Below are positions 1 to 8,417 of a DNA stretch of 30,453 bases, piece by piece. Location: IMG/VR virus record IMGVR_UViG_2563366799_000004, positions 1 to 30,453 of that record; one strand, given 5' to 3'. The DNA is from a virus (lineage: Duplodnaviria; Heunggongvirae; Uroviricota; Caudoviricetes). A program made the position numbers and the translations under genes. Numbering within the stretch: the first letter of the stretch is position 1; each line of letters begins with the position of its first letter. The notes under the pieces are model-generated. The model ran no database searches, was not told the origin of the DNA, and saw nothing but the letters and a program-made list of their open reading frames with translations.

Positions 1-981
1 TCACACCGCCAACCCGCCGCCGAGAGGGTTTAACGTTACTGCGTGTTGCAGGTAATCAGGTGCAAGGTGAGCATAAACCATCGTCTGTTGTATGCTGGCG
101 TGCCCCAGAATTTGCTGTAACGCAATAATGTTCCCCCCGTTCATCATGAACCAGCTTGCAAATGTATGCCGAAGCACATGCGTGGCCTGCCCGCGTGGTA
201 AATCGGGCTTAACCTGTCTGAGCCGTTCGCAGAAGTTTTCATAGTCAACTTTGAACAGTGGCCCGGTGTCGCTGGTCTTGATCTCTTTCTCCAGTTCTTC
301 CGATATGGGAACCGTGCGCTTTTTCCCATTTTTGGTCTTAAGGAACGTCACGCGCCCGTGATTAACCTGCTCACCGCGCAGCGTGCTGCCTTCACCCCAG
401 CGTGCGCCAGTGCTGAGGCATAGCAGTGCTACGCGTCGATCGTCGCCGGTCAGAGTGTCCAGTAATTTGCTGATCTCTGATTTGGCGAGATAGGTCATAG
501 CTGGGGGCGCTTCTTTCAGTGGTTCCAGACCCTTACAGGGGTTATCCTTCCTGAACTCTTCCAGCTTTATCAACGTGCTGAACATCCCGGACAAACGGTA
601 AATATCCCGATTGATCGTTGCTGCACTGATACCGTCTTCCAGCCTTTGGCTTCGGTGCTGTGCAATCATTCGCTTGTTCAGTCGGTTAACGGCTGGATCA
701 CCCAACGCCCTGATCGTTTTATTCAGGTGCCGTTTTTCAATCTCGCCATTTTCCTGAGTCTGTCCATACAGCAGCCACCAGGTATCTAACAACTCGCTTA
801 AGGTGCGGCGGTCAACGCTCGCGCCCAGCCATTCTTTTTTGTCGGCGTTGGCTAGTACATAACGCTCAAAAAGAACTGCCTCTTGTTTCTTCTCAAATCG
901 CCTGCGGATACGTTTTCCGTTACGTCCGCGCGGCCATACGTCCACTTCATATTGACCACCTTCGAGCTTCTTAATCGACAT
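1..981 (-). CDS. int: Phage integrase, tyrosine recombinase (P2 Int-like); complete, stop codon at 1..3
   Basis: 325-aa ORF with C-terminal catalytic region HVLRHTFAS...LGHASIQQTMVYAHL (R-H-R-Y type); SD AGAGGG upstream of ATG at 981; sits downstream of C as in P2. Confidence 0.9.
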   Translation of the reverse strand: MSIKKLEGGQYEVDVWPRGRNGKRIRRRFEKKQEAVLFERYVLANADKKEWLGASVDRRTLSELLDTWWLLYGQTQENGEIEKRHLNKTIRALGDPAVNRLNKRMIAQHRSQRLEDGISAATINRDIYRLSGMFSTLIKLEEFRKDNPCKGLEPLKEAPPAMTYLAKSEISKLLDTLTGDDRRVALLCLSTGARWGEGSTLRGEQVNHGRVTFLKTKNGKKRTVPISEELEKEIKTSDTGPLFKVDYENFCERLRQVKPDLPRGQATHVLRHTFASWFMMNGGNIIALQQILGHASIQQTMVYAHLAPDYLQHAVTLNPLGGGLAV

Positions 982-1050
982 AAGAAAGCCCTCTGGCGTT
1001 TATTTCTCCATCCTGATAACAGATAGTGAAAATGTAATGTTTATAAACGG

Positions 1051-1371
1051 TTAACCAGTTTGTTTCTCGGAGCGGTCTGATCCAGTTGACTCTGGCCCAA
1101 TGTGTGCGAGGGCCGGTGCGATTTGACCAGCTTGAGGGGCGGTCTTATCTGTCATGAGCCAGAGCGTGTATTTTGCAAAGCGGGGATGTTGTGTGATCTT
1201 TAACAAGATTTCACTACCAACGCCTTCTCTTCTCCCCATCTCGTAATGCTTTTGAGTGCCTGCCGGAATACCTGTCAATTCAAAGAATTGAGTTCTGGAT
1301 AGCCCTTCTGCATCCCTTATAGCTCGAATTTTTTCCCCAATCCCGCTTGACTGGGTCTCATTTGATACCAT
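1051..1371 (-). CDS. C: Immunity repressor, P2 C-like
   Basis: Motif KYTLWLMTD...GQIAPALAH matches the P2 C repressor C-terminus; start moved to ATG 1371 (SD AGGAG) instead of the track's TTG at 1395. Confidence 0.8.
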   Translation of the reverse strand: MVSNETQSSGIGEKIRAIRDAEGLSRTQFFELTGIPAGTQKHYEMGRREGVGSEILLKITQHPRFAKYTLWLMTDKTAPQAGQIAPALAHIGPESTGSDRSEKQTG

Positions 1372-1405
1372 ATCCTTCTCCTTGTTGGGTCTCAATTGAT
1401 ACCAT
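1352..1405. promoter_or_regulatory. Putative operator: two 19-bp direct repeats GGGTCTCA(T/A)TTGATACCAT at 1352..1370 and 1387..1405, in the C/cox switch region
   Basis: Direct repeat with one mismatch, 35 bp start-to-start, overlapping the C start codon and C-cox intergenic region; P2-type repressors are known to bind direct repeats. Confidence 0.5.
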
Positions 1406-1482
1406 TAAGATGAAATGGCAACCGCCAATATAAGCAGTTACAAGACGAAATAAGCGCCTAGCGCCAATGGGGATTATGACAC

Positions 1483-1764
1483 ATGACTGAGAAAGATTTA
1501 GAGGGGTTCATTGAAGTGCGTCACGCCGTTGACGCAGTTCCATACCCAAAATTCGCCGAGTTAATCGGTAAGAAGCCCGCCACGGTTAAGAGCATGATTG
1601 AAGACGGTAAGTTGCCGATCATCCCGTGGAAGAACCCGGACAGCCTGGGCGCCCGTGCTGAGAACTGGATCTATATTCCTGAGTTCAACCGCGCAATGCG
1701 TGACGCCTACTACAACCGTCCGAGAGAGCAGCGCGACGCTTGGTTGCTGTGGATCGGTCTTTGA
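1483..1764 (+). CDS. cox: Cox-like excisionase / early transcriptional regulator
   Basis: 93 aa; AVPYPKFAELIGKKPATVKSMIEDGKLPII...NWIYIPEFN...RDAWLLWIGL resembles P2 Cox; divergent from C. Confidence 0.8.
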   Translation: MTEKDLEGFIEVRHAVDAVPYPKFAELIGKKPATVKSMIEDGKLPIIPWKNPDSLGARAENWIYIPEFNRAMRDAYYNRPREQRDAWLLWIGL

Positions 1765-1774
1765 GGTTATCGCG

Positions 1775-1978
1775 ATGAGCCAGAAAACAGCCAACCACGA
1801 AAACCGGGTGCGTGAATGCAACGACATTCTGGACACCCATTTAAAAGATATGCAAACGGGCTTCATGATTCGCACCAATAGCGGCGAGTTTATGATCAGG
1901 GATAAAAAGCTGATTAAGAAAATAACCAAAGACGTGGCCCGCCATGTTGATGGTGAATTGCTTAAATTGGGAATGTGA
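1775..1978 (+). CDS. Hypothetical early protein (67 aa)
   Basis: ATG at 1775 just after the cox stop; the track ORF 1598..1978 extends upstream in a frame overlapping cox, so the internal ATG is preferred. Confidence 0.45.
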   Translation: MSQKTANHENRVRECNDILDTHLKDMQTGFMIRTNSGEFMIRDKKLIKKITKDVARHVDGELLKLGM

Positions 1979-1988
1979 GGGGGCTTTT

Positions 1989-2195
1989 GTGGCTGTGCAA
2001 TTAATACAGTTAAGTCGTCATTCATATTTATATCGTGGCTTCACTATTCAGAAATGCCCGCGTAATCCTTTTACGTTTAAGCACTCTTATCGTATTTCCA
2101 GCAATGGCGATTATTATGGGCGTGACTTTGCTTTAGCGGAAGCCATGCGCACGGTTGATCAGATGTATAAGCAAGGGGGCAGTAATGCACGATGA
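1989..2195 (+). CDS. Hypothetical small protein (GTG start; weak call)
   Basis: GTG at 1989 preceded by GAGGGGG SD; AT-rich region; no recognisable family. Confidence 0.25.
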   Translation: MAVQLIQLSRHSYLYRGFTIQKCPRNPFTFKHSYRISSNGDYYGRDFALAEAMRTVDQMYKQGGSNAR

Positions 2196-2415
2196 AGGCC
2201 CATCACTGGCAAGCCTGCTTAAGCACGGGTGCCAGGTTACACACTTCAAAAACTCACGCGGCTGGCTGGAAACACCAGACGGAAGATTTTTTAAGCCCGA
2301 ACCGGCGAAGGTTCAGTTTATCAAAGGTAAAAATAAACCATTTATTTATACCCAAAGAATAAATAAAGGCTTCCTGCTTACACTGGCTGAATTATTTAAA
2401 AAGCTAATTAAGTAA
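2185..2415 (+). CDS. Hypothetical small protein (76 aa)
   Basis: ATG 2185 preceded by AAGGGGG; lysine-rich AT-rich ORF. Confidence 0.4.
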   Translation: MHDEGPSLASLLKHGCQVTHFKNSRGWLETPDGRFFKPEPAKVQFIKGKNKPFIYTQRINKGFLLTLAELFKKLIK

Positions 2416-2501
2416 TTCGGTTTTAAAAAATCAACTCTGTTTTCTCCGCCTCTTTATCAAGTGGCGGCGGTTCAACTCATTCTTTTTTTGAGGAAGAGAT
2501 T

Positions 2502-2714
2502 ATGACCAGACGTGATCAATATAGCTTCATTTTGCATGTTCTTTTACCTGCTATCGAAAATGAAGGCTTAACCATTAAAACCCGCCGTGATGGTGAGTTA
2601 ACCCTTTCTGCCACTGGATCAGTAACCACAAATTTTATCAGCACCCTGCGCCAGCACTGCATTGAAGAATTGCAGCGCCCTTCTATTCCAGCTTCCCATT
2701 ACGGAGTCCTGTAA
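2502..2714 (+). CDS. Hypothetical small protein (70 aa)
   Basis: ATG with SD GAGGAAGAG; its stop overlaps the dam start (TAAAATG), suggesting translational coupling. Confidence 0.45.
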   Translation: MTRRDQYSFILHVLLPAIENEGLTIKTRRDGELTLSATGSVTTNFISTLRQHCIEELQRPSIPASHYGVL

Positions 2715-2715
2715 A

Positions 2716-3687
2716 ATGATCCGCCCGTTCATCAAATGGGCAGGGGGTAAAACCCGTGTCCTCCCTGACCTGCTGCCGCATCTTCCTAAAGCCGACTGCC
2801 TGATCGAACCGTTCGTAGGCGGCGCATCGGTATTTCTGGCGACTGAATACCGCCGCTATGTGCTGGCTGATATCAACCCGGATCTTATTAACCTGTATCG
2901 GGAAGTCACCCGTTACCCGGACTTAGTGATCGATGCGGCCCGCGAACTGTTCAACAGCAAGAATAGCCCGCAGGGGTACAACGAAGTCCGAGCCGCGTTC
3001 AATAAGCAGGTATGTACGGTAAAAAGCGGTGGGTTGCGTTATGGCGTCGAAATGGCGCGCATCATGCGTGCTGCTCAATTCCTGTATCTGAACCGCCACG
3101 GTTATAACGGCTTATGCCGTTACAGCCGTAAGACCGGCTTTAACGTGCCGTTTGGCAAGTATAAGAGCGTCTACTTTCCTGAAAATGAAATCCGCCTGTT
3201 TGCCGAAAAGGCCAACGATACAAAGGCAATATTTCTTTGCGCGCCGTTCCAGCGTTCTCTACAGGTCGTCACGGGTGGCGATGTTCTCGTTTACTGCGAT
3301 CCGCCTTACCTGCCTGAAAGCAAAACAGCCGATTTTACCCAATACCACACCGAACCATTCACGGAAGACAACCACCGCCAGTTAGTCCAGGCACTGCTGG
3401 AAGTTAACCGTAAGCATGGCGTGAAGGTTGTCATTTCCAACAGCGACACCGAAGCCACCCGCGCGATTTATCAGCCTTTCAAGATGCACGAAATCAGCGT
3501 GCAACGTTCCGTCAGCACTGACAAAGACAACCACCAGAAGGCCAAAGAAGTGATCGGCGTGCTGCCTGTCTGCGACTGCTGCGGGCGTTACGGCGGCGGT
3601 TGCCCTGATTGTGGCGCCGTGATGGGTGATGCGACTTACAACGCGATGGTTGCGGCAGGCACGTTTGACGATCTGGAGGAGTTTTAA
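2716..3687 (+). CDS. dam: DNA adenine methyltransferase (Dam family) with a Cys-rich C-terminal extension
   Basis: N-terminal SAM motif FIKWAGGK, catalytic DPPY motif, plus an extra C-terminal CDCCGRYGGGCPDCG tail. Confidence 0.85.
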   Translation: MIRPFIKWAGGKTRVLPDLLPHLPKADCLIEPFVGGASVFLATEYRRYVLADINPDLINLYREVTRYPDLVIDAARELFNSKNSPQGYNEVRAAFNKQVCTVKSGGLRYGVEMARIMRAAQFLYLNRHGYNGLCRYSRKTGFNVPFGKYKSVYFPENEIRLFAEKANDTKAIFLCAPFQRSLQVVTGGDVLVYCDPPYLPESKTADFTQYHTEPFTEDNHRQLVQALLEVNRKHGVKVVISNSDTEATRAIYQPFKMHEISVQRSVSTDKDNHQKAKEVIGVLPVCDCCGRYGGGCPDCGAVMGDATYNAMVAAGTFDDLEEF

Positions 3688-3866
3688 TGAATCTTGTAGA
3701 CGCCTGGATCGTTGAAATCATAAGCGTGAGTCGTGGCGAGATTGTGCCGTATTGGTTGGTTGAGGCGAAAGTAACAGCTTATGGAAGGGAGTCAATAACC
3801 ACAATTCTGAAGAAATCAGAAGAGGAAGCCAAAGCCGTTAAAGTAGGGGATGTAGTTCAAATATGA
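3687..3866 (+). CDS. Hypothetical small protein (59 aa), translationally coupled between dam and A
   Basis: ATG overlaps the dam stop (TAATG) and its TGA overlaps the A start (ATATGA); not in the ORF track because it is under 60 aa. Confidence 0.35.
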   Translation: MNLVDAWIVEIISVSRGEIVPYWLVEAKVTAYGRESITTILKKSEEEAKAVKVGDVVQI

Positions 3867-6220
3867 CCACGGCAACCCGTGGCCGTCGCGCCCCTTCTCC
3901 ACCTCCACCGTATCCGGGTAGCACTGACAATGCTATCCCTTACGCTTATGGCGGGAACAAACCATACCAGCCGATTGGCGTTGATGTAGCGCCGGGGCTG
4001 GATGGTTTCGACTATCTCACGCCGGACGGCACGCGTAAGCATATTGCGTTCAGTGAACTGGTAGCGGAGGACGAAAAGCCGGAACGCAGTAAGCTGCTGC
4101 GTCGCCGTCTGGCTTCTCTTCCGCAATATGTCCGCCGCCACTTTGCAGCGAAGCTTGATGCGCTGGATGTGAAAGACCGCAAAGCGGCAGATCACTGGCT
4201 GCTTAACACCTTTGAGCGCCACGTATTAACGCGTATTGATAGCGTGAACAGTGTTTACCAGCCTGATACTGTGATGCCCGGCATTCTGCTGCCAATTCGC
4301 GATCAGCTTTTCCGTATGCTCTGGGCAGGGAAAAAAGAGTTAAAAAGACTGGCTTATACGCTTGCCGATATCTTTACGAGCGAGTTTATACGCGAGTCCG
4401 ATCACCAGTTGGTGCGCACCGGCGATCCTGAGTTCGCGGCGCTTTCTGGCTATGGCCGTATTGCATCGCTGGCAGTGCATCTGAAAACGCCGATCCCCGG
4501 TTGGACAGCTTATTGCAATGAAGAACTTGAAGCGGAGGACGCGTTACGCGCAGTTCTCCGTCTTGAGTCACCGCAGTGGTGGTTAAACCGCCTGCGCCGT
4601 ATCCATGCCCGGTGGCGTGAGCATTTGATGATCGCAGCGGGATACGTCCAGAAAAAATCCTCCCCATACAGTAGCGCCCCGTGCCTTACGGAATGGCTGG
4701 CCCAGAAAAAAGCTAACCGTGAATACCTCAAGGCTATGGAACTGGAAGACCAGGACACGGGCGAGCGCATTTCGCTGATCGATAAAGTCGCCGGCAGTGT
4801 TGCCAATCCGGCCAACCGTCGCCGCGAACTCATGACGAGAATGCGCGGATTTGAAGATCTGGCGAAGCTGGAAGGGCTGGCCGGTGACTTCTACACGCTG
4901 ACAGCGCCTTCCCGCTATCACGCTATGCAGCATAACGGGCGCCGTAATAACAAATACTGTGGCGCGTCGCCGCGTGAGACACAGCAATATCTTTGCAAAG
5001 TCTGGGCGAGAACCCGCGCCGCATGGAAGAGAAAAGGGATCCGCGTCTTTGGTTTTCGCGTGGTCGAACCGCACCACGATGCAACGCCACACTGGCATTT
5101 ACTTCTTTTTATGCGCCCGGAATGCGTCGAGCAGGCGCGCGAAATCTTCCGTAAATATGCCCTGAAAGAAGACGGCAACGAACCGGGAGCGCAGGAAAAC
5201 CGCTTTCAGGTTGTGCCGATCGACGATGCCCACGGCAGCGCAACCGGCTACATAGCGAAATACATTTCGAAGAATATCGACGGCTTCGCGCTGGATGGTG
5301 AGAAAGACGACGAAACCGGGGAAGACCTGAAAGAAATGTCACTCCGCGTTAGCGCGTGGGCATCGCGCTGGGCTATTCGTCAGTTTCAGCAGATCGGCGG
5401 TGCGCCGGTCACGGTATATCGCGAACTTCGCCGCCTGGGCGATCGCGAACTGGTGTTACACCCTGAACTGGAAACCGCCCGGCAGGCCGCTAACGGTGGC
5501 GAATGGGATAACTACGTATTAGCCCAGGGTGGCCCATTGGTTGAGCGCGATAAGCTGCGCATCCGTCTGAATTATGAAACCACTGAAAACGGCAACGCCT
5601 ACGGCGATAACGTCCAGCGAATCACAGGTATTTACTGCCCTATTACGGGCAATGACTCTTTGATCTTCACCCGTACCACTCAATACAAAATCGTGCCGAA
5701 GCGCCAGAGCGCTGACGGTGTGGCCGTTGACGTTGGTTTTTCAGGCGGCAGCGCCGCCCCTCGGAGTTCTGTCAATAACTGTACGCGGGATCCCGCGGCA
5801 GGTGCTGACGGTGTTGAACATGCCGATCACGAAGTGGGCGAGACGGTGAATTTTGATGCGCTTTCACGGCAGGAAAAGCGAGAACTGGCACAGAGGCTAA
5901 GTGACGATGTGCGAAGTAAGCGGAAAAAACGGCCACCGGAACGGGAAGACGGGGCCGGGATATCCGTGAAAGAGCAGCAGATCAGTGAACTGCTGGCGCT
6001 GCGTGGGATTGATGCCAGCGTCGGAATGGTCAGATCGATGATGGCCGGTGCGTCAGTGGCGTGCGGCGATCTTGTTATGACAGTGCAGGATGGGCGGCTG
6101 GTATCGCGCAACCGCGCCGCGTCGGGGCTGGATAAGCTGCCGTCGCAGGTGATGGCGGCGAAGCAACAGACAAATAGTCTTATTAACCGAATGAAAAAAG
6201 CCTTTAACGGTGCGTCATAA
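3863..6220 (+). CDS. A: Replication initiation endonuclease, P2 gpA-like (rolling-circle)
   Basis: 785 aa; contains the conserved active-site tyrosine region GYIAKYISKNIDGF typical of P2 A. Confidence 0.9.
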   Translation: MTTATRGRRAPSPPPPYPGSTDNAIPYAYGGNKPYQPIGVDVAPGLDGFDYLTPDGTRKHIAFSELVAEDEKPERSKLLRRRLASLPQYVRRHFAAKLDALDVKDRKAADHWLLNTFERHVLTRIDSVNSVYQPDTVMPGILLPIRDQLFRMLWAGKKELKRLAYTLADIFTSEFIRESDHQLVRTGDPEFAALSGYGRIASLAVHLKTPIPGWTAYCNEELEAEDALRAVLRLESPQWWLNRLRRIHARWREHLMIAAGYVQKKSSPYSSAPCLTEWLAQKKANREYLKAMELEDQDTGERISLIDKVAGSVANPANRRRELMTRMRGFEDLAKLEGLAGDFYTLTAPSRYHAMQHNGRRNNKYCGASPRETQQYLCKVWARTRAAWKRKGIRVFGFRVVEPHHDATPHWHLLLFMRPECVEQAREIFRKYALKEDGNEPGAQENRFQVVPIDDAHGSATGYIAKYISKNIDGFALDGEKDDETGEDLKEMSLRVSAWASRWAIRQFQQIGGAPVTVYRELRRLGDRELVLHPELETARQAANGGEWDNYVLAQGGPLVERDKLRIRLNYETTENGNAYGDNVQRITGIYCPITGNDSLIFTRTTQYKIVPKRQSADGVAVDVGFSGGSAAPRSSVNNCTRDPAAGADGVEHADHEVGETVNFDALSRQEKRELAQRLSDDVRSKRKKRPPEREDGAGISVKEQQISELLALRGIDASVGMVRSMMAGASVACGDLVMTVQDGRLVSRNRAASGLDKLPSQVMAAKQQTNSLINRMKKAFNGAS

Positions 6221-6272
6221 CAGCGTGCCGGGGCTTCGCTTATTCATTTTCAGAAGAAACAGGAGTGACAGC

Positions 6273-6989
6273 ATGAGCAAAATTACCAGAGAACGCGCAG
6301 CAAAAATTGCAGCAGGCGGCGGATATAACTTTGATGAGGTGGAGGAGCTGGCGCGTATCGCGCTGGCATCGCTCGAAGCGGAGGAGTCAGGGCGAAATCC
6401 CGTGCTGGCCTATGCAGACAGTTACCGCGATATGGCTAAGCAGGGTGTTGAATCTATTCCTGTATGGAGCGTAATTACCGATCTGGAAAGAAATATCGCC
6501 CCGCTATACTCCGCCTCGCCAGCGCCGGTAGTTCCGGCAGAGCTTCATCCTGATACGCTGAAACTGGTGACCGACTTCAGCTCTGCCCTGGCTGAGAAGT
6601 TGTACAAGGCTCAATTAAAATATGGCTATGACGCGGACTGGAAACAAGATGGTTGGCCAAGCCAATGCCAGGCAGACTTTCAACAGCATATAGCTAAGGG
6701 AGACCCCCGGGATATTGCCGCTTACTGTGCATTTATGTGGTATCACGGCTGGAAAACTGAGCCAGCGCCGGTATCGCTGCCTGACGAGCAACATAGCGAA
6801 CGCTTCAACTGGACACTTGGGCAGTGGGCTGAACATGTTGGGGGTCATTACCAGGGAAATGATCCGGCAAACTATTACGAGTTCGGCTCATTCATGGCGG
6901 TCGCTGCAATGCTGTGCCAATTCGGCACCGTTCAGCAAAAAATTGGATGGAACGCCTGCCGCGCCGCCATGGTTAACGCAGGCCAGTGA
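6273..6989 (+). CDS. Cargo protein in the A-to-cos variable locus; C-terminal half loosely resembles DUF550-type prophage proteins (function unknown)
   Basis: 238 aa from ATG 6273 (SD AGGAGTGA); occupies the position of tin/old in P2; motifs KYGYDADW and KGDPRDIAAYCAFMWYHG; family assignment is from memory only. Confidence 0.6.
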   Translation: MSKITRERAAKIAAGGGYNFDEVEELARIALASLEAEESGRNPVLAYADSYRDMAKQGVESIPVWSVITDLERNIAPLYSASPAPVVPAELHPDTLKLVTDFSSALAEKLYKAQLKYGYDADWKQDGWPSQCQADFQQHIAKGDPRDIAAYCAFMWYHGWKTEPAPVSLPDEQHSERFNWTLGQWAEHVGGHYQGNDPANYYEFGSFMAVAAMLCQFGTVQQKIGWNACRAAMVNAGQ

Positions 6990-7138
6990 ATGGCTTTGCG
7001 GGAGTGCTGAAAATCAGTGCAAAATTTCGCGCAAAACCGCACAAATTTTATGATGGTGATTTTTCAGGAGCAGACCAGACGGGGCGGGCCTTCCGCTGGT
7101 CTGCACATTTGCACAAAAAAGCGGGGTTTCTGCGTGCG

Positions 7139-7157
7139 GGCGAGGCGGGGGAATGAG
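7139..7157. other. Putative cos (cohesive end) site
   Basis: GGCGAGGCGGGGGAATGAG closely resembles the P2 19-nt cohesive end GGCGAGGCGGGGAAAGCAC; lies between the A-side locus and portal gene as in P2. Confidence 0.5.
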
Positions 7158-7251
7158 CGCGCGCTGAGGGGTGGGATAGGGTCGGTATTATCTGCGCCGA
7201 TTTTCGCGCCGCTGCGCCTCGCTGCTGCGTCGTTTTCGGTTCGCCGTGGTG

Positions 7252-7297
7252 GGTTGAGGAAAAAGAAAAGCCCCTGCCAGCAGGCTGCTGAGGGGCT
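7252..7297 (-). terminator. Rho-independent terminator downstream of portal gene Q
   Basis: Hairpin AAGCCCCT...AGGGGCTT with inner CAGCAG/CTGCTG pairing, followed on the minus strand by TTTTCTTTTTCC. Confidence 0.6.
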
Positions 7298-7367
7298 TAC
7301 GTGCGGTGTGGTCAGTTATGGCCGTGTAGGACTTTGCGCGGTGGTGGTGGGTGTGTCCGGGCTGGCG

Positions 7368-8417
7368 TCAGATTGCTGCCTGCAACAGTGCGTAAGGGTT
7401 GAAGCGCACCACGTCGATCCCCAGCCAGTCGTTTAACTCTTTCAGGCTTTCTTGTATCGGGGCCAGTTCGTTGATGGAAAACACCTTCGCCGCTTTCTCT
7501 ACGTCGCCGAAGCCACCGGAGTTATTCGGCATTACCCCCATCAGAACGGGCGGCACGCGGTGCGCGGCTAACAGGTCGTCGCGGGTGGCGTCTTTGATGC
7601 CGGTAAACTCATCCTTCGCCGCCACCTGGCTGAACGGCATAATTTGCAGGCCGTCTTTTTTCCCGCCCGCCGCGTAGACAAACAGGTTTTTAAAAGCACC
7701 GTTGCCGCGTGCATCTTTCAGCGACTTCTTAAGCTTTTCCACATCGTTATTATTCGCCACCGGGTCAGTGAGGTAGACGATCACACCCGCATGACTGCCG
7801 TTAATGTAGTAGTTGCGGCGGAACACCGTTGCTTCACCGTTCAGCATGGCGCTTTGTAGCGCGGCCAGATATTCCGGCGCACCGTAGATCTCCTGGTGCG
7901 GGCTGGGGTTCTTGATCTGGCAGACGCTGCCCGGTTCGAACGCGTGATCGTCAACGTAGCGCGGAACAAACCAGAATTGCGCCGGGTCTATGCCGCGCCG
8001 CGTATATTTTGCCTGGCTGTGCCGCAGCTCGATCGGCTGGCCGAGTCGGTTGCGGCGGCATTCCATGTAACAGTTACCGAAAATTAAATAATCCTGCACC
8101 CAGGCGGTGAACTCCTGCCGGGTCAACAGCGGGTGCGGTATGTAGCAACTGGCGATAACATTGCGTTTAAATATCAGCGGTGACTGGTGATAGGCGGCAA
8201 CGTCGAACATGCGCGCCAGCCCGTAGGGGCTGATCGGTGGTTCATACCAGCGGCCATTGTTATGGCATTCGAGGCACTCCATAAGAGACGCGCGATCGTT
8301 GACTGCGATCGGGTCGCCAAAGCTGAAAGATTCCACGCTTTCCAGCGGGGTGGCTGCGTTGCTGGCCGTGCTGGCTGGCGCAGCAGTTGGCGCCCTGAAT
8401 TTTTTTTTGCCGCTCAA
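7368..8417 (-). CDS. Q: Portal protein, P2 gpQ-like
   Basis: 349 aa; position and family resemblance to P2 Q; directly abuts P. Confidence 0.85.
   Translation of the reverse strand: MSGKKKFRAPTAAPASTASNAATPLESVESFSFGDPIAVNDRASLMECLECHNNGRWYEPPISPYGLARMFDVAAYHQSPLIFKRNVIASCYIPHPLLTRQEFTAWVQDYLIFGNCYMECRRNRLGQPIELRHSQAKYTRRGIDPAQFWFVPRYVDDHAFEPGSVCQIKNPSPHQEIYGAPEYLAALQSAMLNGEATVFRRNYYINGSHAGVIVYLTDPVANNNDVEKLKKSLKDARGNGAFKNLFVYAAGGKKDGLQIMPFSQVAAKDEFTGIKDATRDDLLAAHRVPPVLMGVMPNNSGGFGDVEKAAKVFSINELAPIQESLKELNDWLGIDVVRFNPYALLQAAI

Follow-up and report, generated by a model that had tools for sequence, protein, structure and literature searches.

The 940-nt segment at positions 1775–2714 is probably an accessory block at the promoter-proximal end of an early lytic operon, that of a prophage of the P2/186 family (Peduoviridae, Novemvirus-like), and in it a Fil and a Dhr-like protein would act together in host shutoff. 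The window, by which we mean the whole stretch of 30,453 nt that was analysed, is almost an entire P2-like prophage, and the segment consists of four tightly packed ORFs of 67, 68, 76 and 70 aa on the plus strand, between cox and dam. The features on which the argument draws are listed here by position in the window.

1–981, minus strand: integrase, at the window start
1051–1395, minus strand: C-type repressor
1483–1764, plus strand: cox, which opens the early operon and encodes an excisionase and repressor of the Cox type (Pfam Phage_Cox, E 2.9e-23)
1775–1978, plus strand: ORF1, 67 aa, ATG start, phrog_29148
1989–2195, plus strand: ORF2, 68 aa, GTG start, DUF4761
2185–2415, plus strand: ORF3, 76 aa, Fil family
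2446–2467, plus strand: conserved hairpin in the 86-nt fil–ORF4 spacer (2416–2501), CCGCC-T-CTT, loop TATC, AAG-T-GGCGG
2476–2498, plus strand: second, weaker hairpin, found in the minimum free energy (MFE) fold, in which a conserved CTCAT motif and a T-run are predicted to pair with the ORF4 ribosome-binding site GAGGAAGAG
2502–2714, plus strand: ORF4, 70 aa, taken as a divergent Dhr homologue
2716–3687, plus strand: dam, D12-class N6-adenine DNA methyltransferase with a Cys-rich C-terminal tail (PF02086, MethyltransfD12, E 4.8e-63; phrog_56, E 1e-100)
3687–3866, plus strand: orf59, 59 aa, between dam and A (phrog_8110, E 2.7e-12; annotated in phiT5282H)
3863–6220, plus strand: gene A, rolling-circle replication initiator (Pfam Phage_GPA, E 5.7e-106)
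29533, near the window end: host cation-efflux gene

Gene content and conservation of the cluster

The genes of the segment follow one another closely, with gaps of 10 nt between cox and ORF1, 10 nt between ORF1 and ORF2, 86 nt between ORF3 and ORF4 and 1 nt between ORF4 and dam, and with an 11-nt overlap of ORF2 and ORF3. No 940-nt stretch of the window has a lower GC content than this segment, at 0.430 (mean 0.541, sd 0.035), and only 0.14% of such stretches are as low. Median dN/dS against diverged alleles of related loci was 0.075 for ORF1, 0.040 for ORF2, 0.098 for ORF3 and 0.175 for ORF4, so that all four are under purifying selection and, with values of 0.04–0.18 throughout, protein-coding. 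The AT-rich cluster of four small ORFs between cox and dam reported in the earlier note is thus real, although the size range given there, 59–77 aa, is slightly off: the four products span 67–76 aa, and the sole ORF of 59 aa is found beyond dam, at 3687–3866.

The closest named phage is the Enterobacter phage phiT5282H (Peduoviridae, Novemvirus), which shares 97% nucleotide identity with the window over 1400–3900 and whose annotation has the identical four genes in identical order. Identity to the Salmonella phages SEN4 and SEN5 (Peduoviridae) is 92% over the same stretch, which is also present in 39 of 5426 complete E. coli genomes. In phiT5282H and SEN4/SEN5, the four ORFs are annotated as hypothetical, DUF4761, cell division inhibitor and hypothetical, and they differ from those of the window only as alleles; SEN4 and SEN5, unlike the window, carry an additional cytosine methyltransferase nearby. 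More widely, the four-ORF order recurs in dozens of P2-like prophages. Its DUF4761–fil–ORF4–dam part is nearly constant, recurring in most of the 72 IMG/VR loci found to have a relative of ORF4 and also in 39 E. coli genomes, and ORF1 is found in about two thirds of these 72 loci, namely those that share the cox type of the window. The low dN/dS values (0.04–0.18) and the conserved gene order rule out spurious ORFs. A 154-aa antisense ORF (1561–2025, minus strand) that overlaps cox and ORF1 is open in many close relatives and has internal stops in 10 of 40 distinct variants, and is most likely a shadow ORF of the constrained sense frames.

NCBIfam and PADLOC returned no match for any of the four ORFs, and an Rfam scan of 1000–4000 gave none either. 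The literature that was searched contained nothing on DUF4761, nor on the function of Dhr or Fil, and statements on Fil and Dhr function made below rest on the annotation of the phage 186 record (NC_001317).

Some observations concern the genes around the cluster. The longest frame of the repressor, starting with TTG at 1395, would encode 114 aa (1051–1395, minus strand), and the phiT5282H repressor product is annotated as 106 aa, which corresponds to a start at the ATG at 1371. A promoter-like TTGACT-18-TATCCT on the plus strand (1347–1376) overlaps the repressor start, much as Pe overlaps the start of C in P2. At the other end of the cluster, Dam carries a C-terminal extension (residues about 282–323; window 3550–3687) that contains a CxxC...CxxC motif and finishes in the acidic sequence F-D-D-L-E-E-F; it is this tail, not the methylase domain, that matches the exonuclease-annotated PHROGs phrog_20376, phrog_2082 and phrog_607, which suggests a common zinc-ribbon or partner-binding module. 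Further downstream, between gene A and the portal gene and at the position of the P2 tin/old defence hotspot, two plus-strand ORFs of 259 and 139 aa (6210–6989 and 7017–7436) had no match in Pfam or PADLOC, and the 259-aa ORF matched only PHROGs of unknown function.

Fil and Dhr-like proteins and the spacer between their genes

Within the early lytic operon, ORF3 comes after the excisionase/repressor gene, in the order int, C, cox, ORF1, ORF2, ORF3. Its product is clearly a member of the Fil family, the cell-division inhibitor family of phage 186, as judged from its matches to Pfam Phage_186_Fil (PF10893; E 4.4e-20, 71.6 bits against a cut-off of 25, profile positions 2–52 of 56) and to phrog_816 'cell division inhibitor' (E 2.1e-21). 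Similarity to 186 Fil itself (33% identity over the N-terminal 43 aa) is limited to the N-terminal two thirds. Overexpression of 186 fil blocks cell division according to the NC_001317 annotation, and ORF3 is linked to this activity by homology.

ORF4, annotated as hypothetical in every database seen and with no match in Pfam or NCBIfam, is taken as a divergent homologue of 186 Dhr at the superfamily level, outside the narrow Dhr PHROG. This assignment draws together a blastp alignment to 186 Dhr (31% identity over 65 aa), a weak HMM match to phrog_6069 (Dhr family; E 0.05), an hhalign comparison of the ORF4 family (81 members) with the Dhr family (24 variants) that gave a probability of 93.8% and E 1.8e-7 over 62 of 66 columns, and the location of ORF4 3' of fil, which holds in most of the 72 related loci. 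Reciprocal HMM searches between the two families scored 16–23 bits. The two proteins, of 70 aa and about 66 aa, are colinear over their full length (residues 4–66 aligned to 3–64) and have in common an N-terminal M-[ST]-R-(R)-D and a hairpin E-G-[FL]-x-I-K-T-R-x-D-G. W-[ED]-C-C-K, which forms part of the Dhr motif E-W-[ED]-C-C-K, is kept in all 24 Dhr variants, and the ORF4 family alignment has no Cys pair at this position. Because the Cys-Cys motif is missing, ORF4 was filed as a divergent relative and not as a member of the narrow Dhr family. Given this difference, the identity of ~31% and the E of 0.05 for phrog_6069, its activity may differ from that of 186 Dhr, which according to the NC_001317 annotation inhibits host DNA replication and to which ORF4 is linked by homology.

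In contig L157, which alone carries P0183, a distant relative of ORF1, the gene after fil (2687–2818) begins with an N-terminus like that of Dhr and ORF4 (SKRDQLNFILHKLIPAIVEEGI) but loses the resemblance beyond it and ends after 43 aa; it looks like a decayed dhr-like gene.

The cluster is by no means unrecognisable: ORF3 belongs to the Fil family and ORF2 to DUF4761, and ORF4 is assigned as a divergent Dhr homologue. Profile searches, as the earlier note had proposed for each ORF, found families for these three, and AlphaFold2 (AF2) models of ORF1 and ORF2 had no informative neighbours. The note's suggestion of host takeover appears plausible, with homology behind it for two genes (Fil and Dhr-like); its other suggestion, anti-defence, found neither a PADLOC match nor an informative structural match.

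Between fil and ORF4, the hairpin at 2446–2467 is a candidate for a regulated terminator or RNA element. In an alignment of 19 spacer variants, 98% of cells at its eight pairs were paired, with compensatory changes at four of the eight, and its covariation score was reached by 0 of 500 shuffles. The G-U pairs are valid on the plus strand only, which suggests that the element acts as RNA in the early transcript. The hairpin takes the place that the terminator after B has in P2 and tR1 has in 186, and it resembles both in sequence, with a CACTTAATT-type loop followed by TTCTTTTT. Its T-run begins 15 nt past the stem, so that it is not a textbook intrinsic terminator, and a terminator pattern scan flagged no canonical intrinsic terminator in the spacer. 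The MFE fold of the whole spacer was not significant (z = −0.96), and support for the hairpin is confined to alignment-based covariation. On its 3' side, the ACTCA of an ACTCA(T) motif is nearly invariant among the same 19 variants, and, judging from the sequences, this motif can pair with the ribosome-binding site of the following gene, in relatives as well as in the window.

The spacer also receives cargo. About 15 related loci (L129–L143, L146, L148, L151, L153) have an insert of 745–845 nt just downstream of the hairpin, which makes this a recurrent cargo-insertion site. Most of the inserts encode a RefSeq-called TerB family protein and also what looks like a small membrane protein; that of L153 is different from the others.

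ORF1, ORF2 and alternative readings

ORF1 is, as far as sequence searches reach, a near-orphan. It matched phrog_29148 (E 6e-50), its family comprises only 37 clusters, all at least 81% identical, and a profile search of 1.84 billion representatives returned only this family and one true distant relative, P0183, which occupies the same cox–ORF1–DUF4761–Fil slot. The AF2 model (pLDDT 82) has the order helix, beta-hairpin, helix, and a structure search with it gave no informative neighbour. In hhalign, the comparison of ORF1 with the Dhr family gave P 3e-4 and a probability of 30–40%, with 0 of 60 shuffles reaching the score, in an alignment centred on the shared hairpin G-F-x-I-[KR]-T-x-x-G. 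ORF1 is therefore a possible distant Dhr-like paralogue, which we treat as a lead and not as a result. Sequence searches of the PDB with the profiles of ORF1, ORF2 and ORF4 yielded nothing significant. P0117, a metagenomic variant encoded on a 1078-nt ENA contig, joins residues 1–48 of ORF1 in frame to the last 37 residues of ORF2, a fusion that evidently arose by deletion across the ORF1/ORF2 junction.

ORF2 matched PF15958 (DUF4761) with E 8.7e-11 and 42.3 bits against a cut-off of 27. All 36 aligned sequences (35 family members and a protein of phage P88) also hit PF15958, and the family is distributed across Enterobacterales. Its GTG start is preceded, six bases upstream, by GAGGGGG and is backed by the family alignment. 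The AF2 model (pLDDT 78) has five strands and a C-terminal helix, and fold searches with it gave no informative neighbour and did not return 9e4w, the structure of the Acb4 protein (gp1.3) of phage SPO1.

This protein matters for a reading that we judge improbable, namely that the cluster, or at least ORF1 with ORF2, is an anti-defence island, in which DUF4761 would be a distant relative of the Acb4 (PF13876) cyclic-nucleotide sponges and neutralise CBASS-type immunity, with dam adding anti-restriction. SPO1 Acb4 was the best PDB sequence match of the DUF4761 profile (E 0.79), and hhalign of DUF4761 against the single Acb4 sequence gave P 4e-4 and a probability of 34–42%, a score that 0 of 100 column shuffles reached. 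In this alignment, Y34 and G44-R45-D46 of ORF2, which are invariant, and A48-L49, which are conserved, align to Y57 and G67-R68-D69-x-A71-L72 of Acb4 (G-R-D-F-A-L against G-R-D-T-A-L), and Y57 is a residue that contacts the ligand phosphate (PMC11722364). The low GC content and early position of the cluster also resemble those of anti-defence islands, and Acb4/PF13876 sponges, like DUF4761, are small early phage proteins, the two sharing the local motif Y...G-R-D-x-A-L..A. However, hhalign of DUF4761 against a diverse, 11-member PF13876 family profile gave a probability of only 11%, PF13876 was matched by none of the 36 DUF4761 sequences in a scan at E up to 10, the predicted topology of ORF2 differs from the alpha-beta-beta-beta-alpha core of the Acb4-like fold, and PADLOC found nothing in the cluster. 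The two families thus have neither a significant family-level match nor a fold match, and after ten extra loci and a family profile had been added the Acb4 link stayed weak, a low-probability lead only. A Ralstonia phage homologue of Acb4, checked as a P2-like parallel, had no P2-like genes nearby.

To two remote readings we would likewise give a small chance. In one, DUF4761, a widespread small protein encoded after cox in many P2-like prophages of enterobacteria, would be a very divergent branch of Acb4 and serve temperate phages as an anti-CBASS factor. In the other, ORF1 and ORF4 would be two paralogues within a Dhr superfamily, each aimed at a different component of host replication.

Still less probable is that ORF1 and ORF2 are regulators of lysis-lysogeny or of replication, stand-ins for 186 CII or P2 gpB and not directed at the host. 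They do stand at the position of cII in 186 and of orf78–B in P2, DUF4761 directly follows cox in P88 and phages of its type, and both genes are strongly conserved (dN/dS 0.04–0.075), but neither has a helix-turn-helix or other DNA-binding signature in Pfam or among structural matches, neither is similar to CII or gpB, and ORF1 is missing from about a third of the related prophages that retain the other genes of the module, which makes an essential role in regulation less likely.

The reading that we favour, an accessory segment with Fil and Dhr-like host shutoff, may be envisaged as follows. Upon derepression, the early promoter upstream of cox would drive a transcript through cox, ORF1, ORF2 (DUF4761) and ORF3 (Fil); transcription would then meet the conserved RNA hairpin and go on into ORF4 (Dhr-like), dam, orf59 and gene A, and the short gaps and overlaps suggest translational coupling along the way. 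Fil would block host cell division and the Dhr-like protein would lower host chromosome replication, and together they would free the cell for rolling-circle replication of the phage by A, with ORF1 and ORF2 as probable conserved accessory proteins. Without the P2 gpB helicase loader, the phage, like 186, probably relies on the host loader. We infer the timing of expression, the two host-shutoff activities and the dependence on the host loader from the 186 annotation and from homology.

The cluster belongs to the ordinary variable portion of the genome in a well-known phage family and is already annotated, and the current understanding of P2-like phages is unchanged. What is new here is the Dhr link for ORF4, the covarying hairpin with its insertion site, and two weak remote-homology leads. 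The main gain is one of annotation, in that about 85 'hypothetical' protein clusters from Enterobacterales prophages can now be linked to Dhr, the host-replication inhibitor of 186. The fil–dhr host-shutoff pair would thereby be extended from 186-type to cox-type P2-like phages, and the second, divergent branches of Fil and Dhr offer conserved positions to guide mutagenesis and target hunting.

Comparison with phages 186 and P2

Phage 186, not P2, is the right comparator for this region. The gene order is apl, cII, fil, dhr, terminator tR1, CP79–84, A in 186 (NC_001317), and cox, orf78, B, terminator, orf80–83, A in P2 (NC_001895). The window and 186 are alike in having a fil homologue, a Dhr homologue just downstream of it and a hairpin in the same part of the operon, and in having no P2-type gene B; moreover, the A protein of the window is 43% identical to that of 186, compared with 37% for P2 A. 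They differ in the first gene, which is a P2-type cox in the window (its product 48% identical to P2 Cox) but apl in 186, and in what follows it, since 186 cII does not occur in the window and ORF1 and the DUF4761 gene are found in its place. In the window, the hairpin is located in the 86-nt spacer that separates fil from ORF4, the dhr-like gene; in 186, it comes after dhr, and dhr overlaps fil. Downstream of the dhr-like gene, the window has the dam methylase and 186 the CP79–CP84 genes.

With P2, the window shares the int–C–cox switch layout, the direction of the operon and a hairpin that has a TTCTTTTT tail and lies midway to A. No homologue of P2 orf78, B or orf80–83 was found in the window. 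The earlier note had described gene B as absent and the P2 orf78–B slot as occupied by other genes, and this is borne out: in tblastn of P2 gpB against the whole window, the best match had E 0.11 and lay on an unrelated strand at an unrelated position, and none of the early ORFs matched phrog_235 (gpB helicase loader). Phage 186 is likewise without gene B, so the lack of this gene is nothing unusual in this branch of the family; 186 depends on the DnaC of its host, whereas P2 uses gpB. By its gene complement, the window is a mixture: the switch (C, cox) is of P2 type, the accessory genes (fil and a putative dhr-like gene) are of 186 type, and A is nearer to that of 186.
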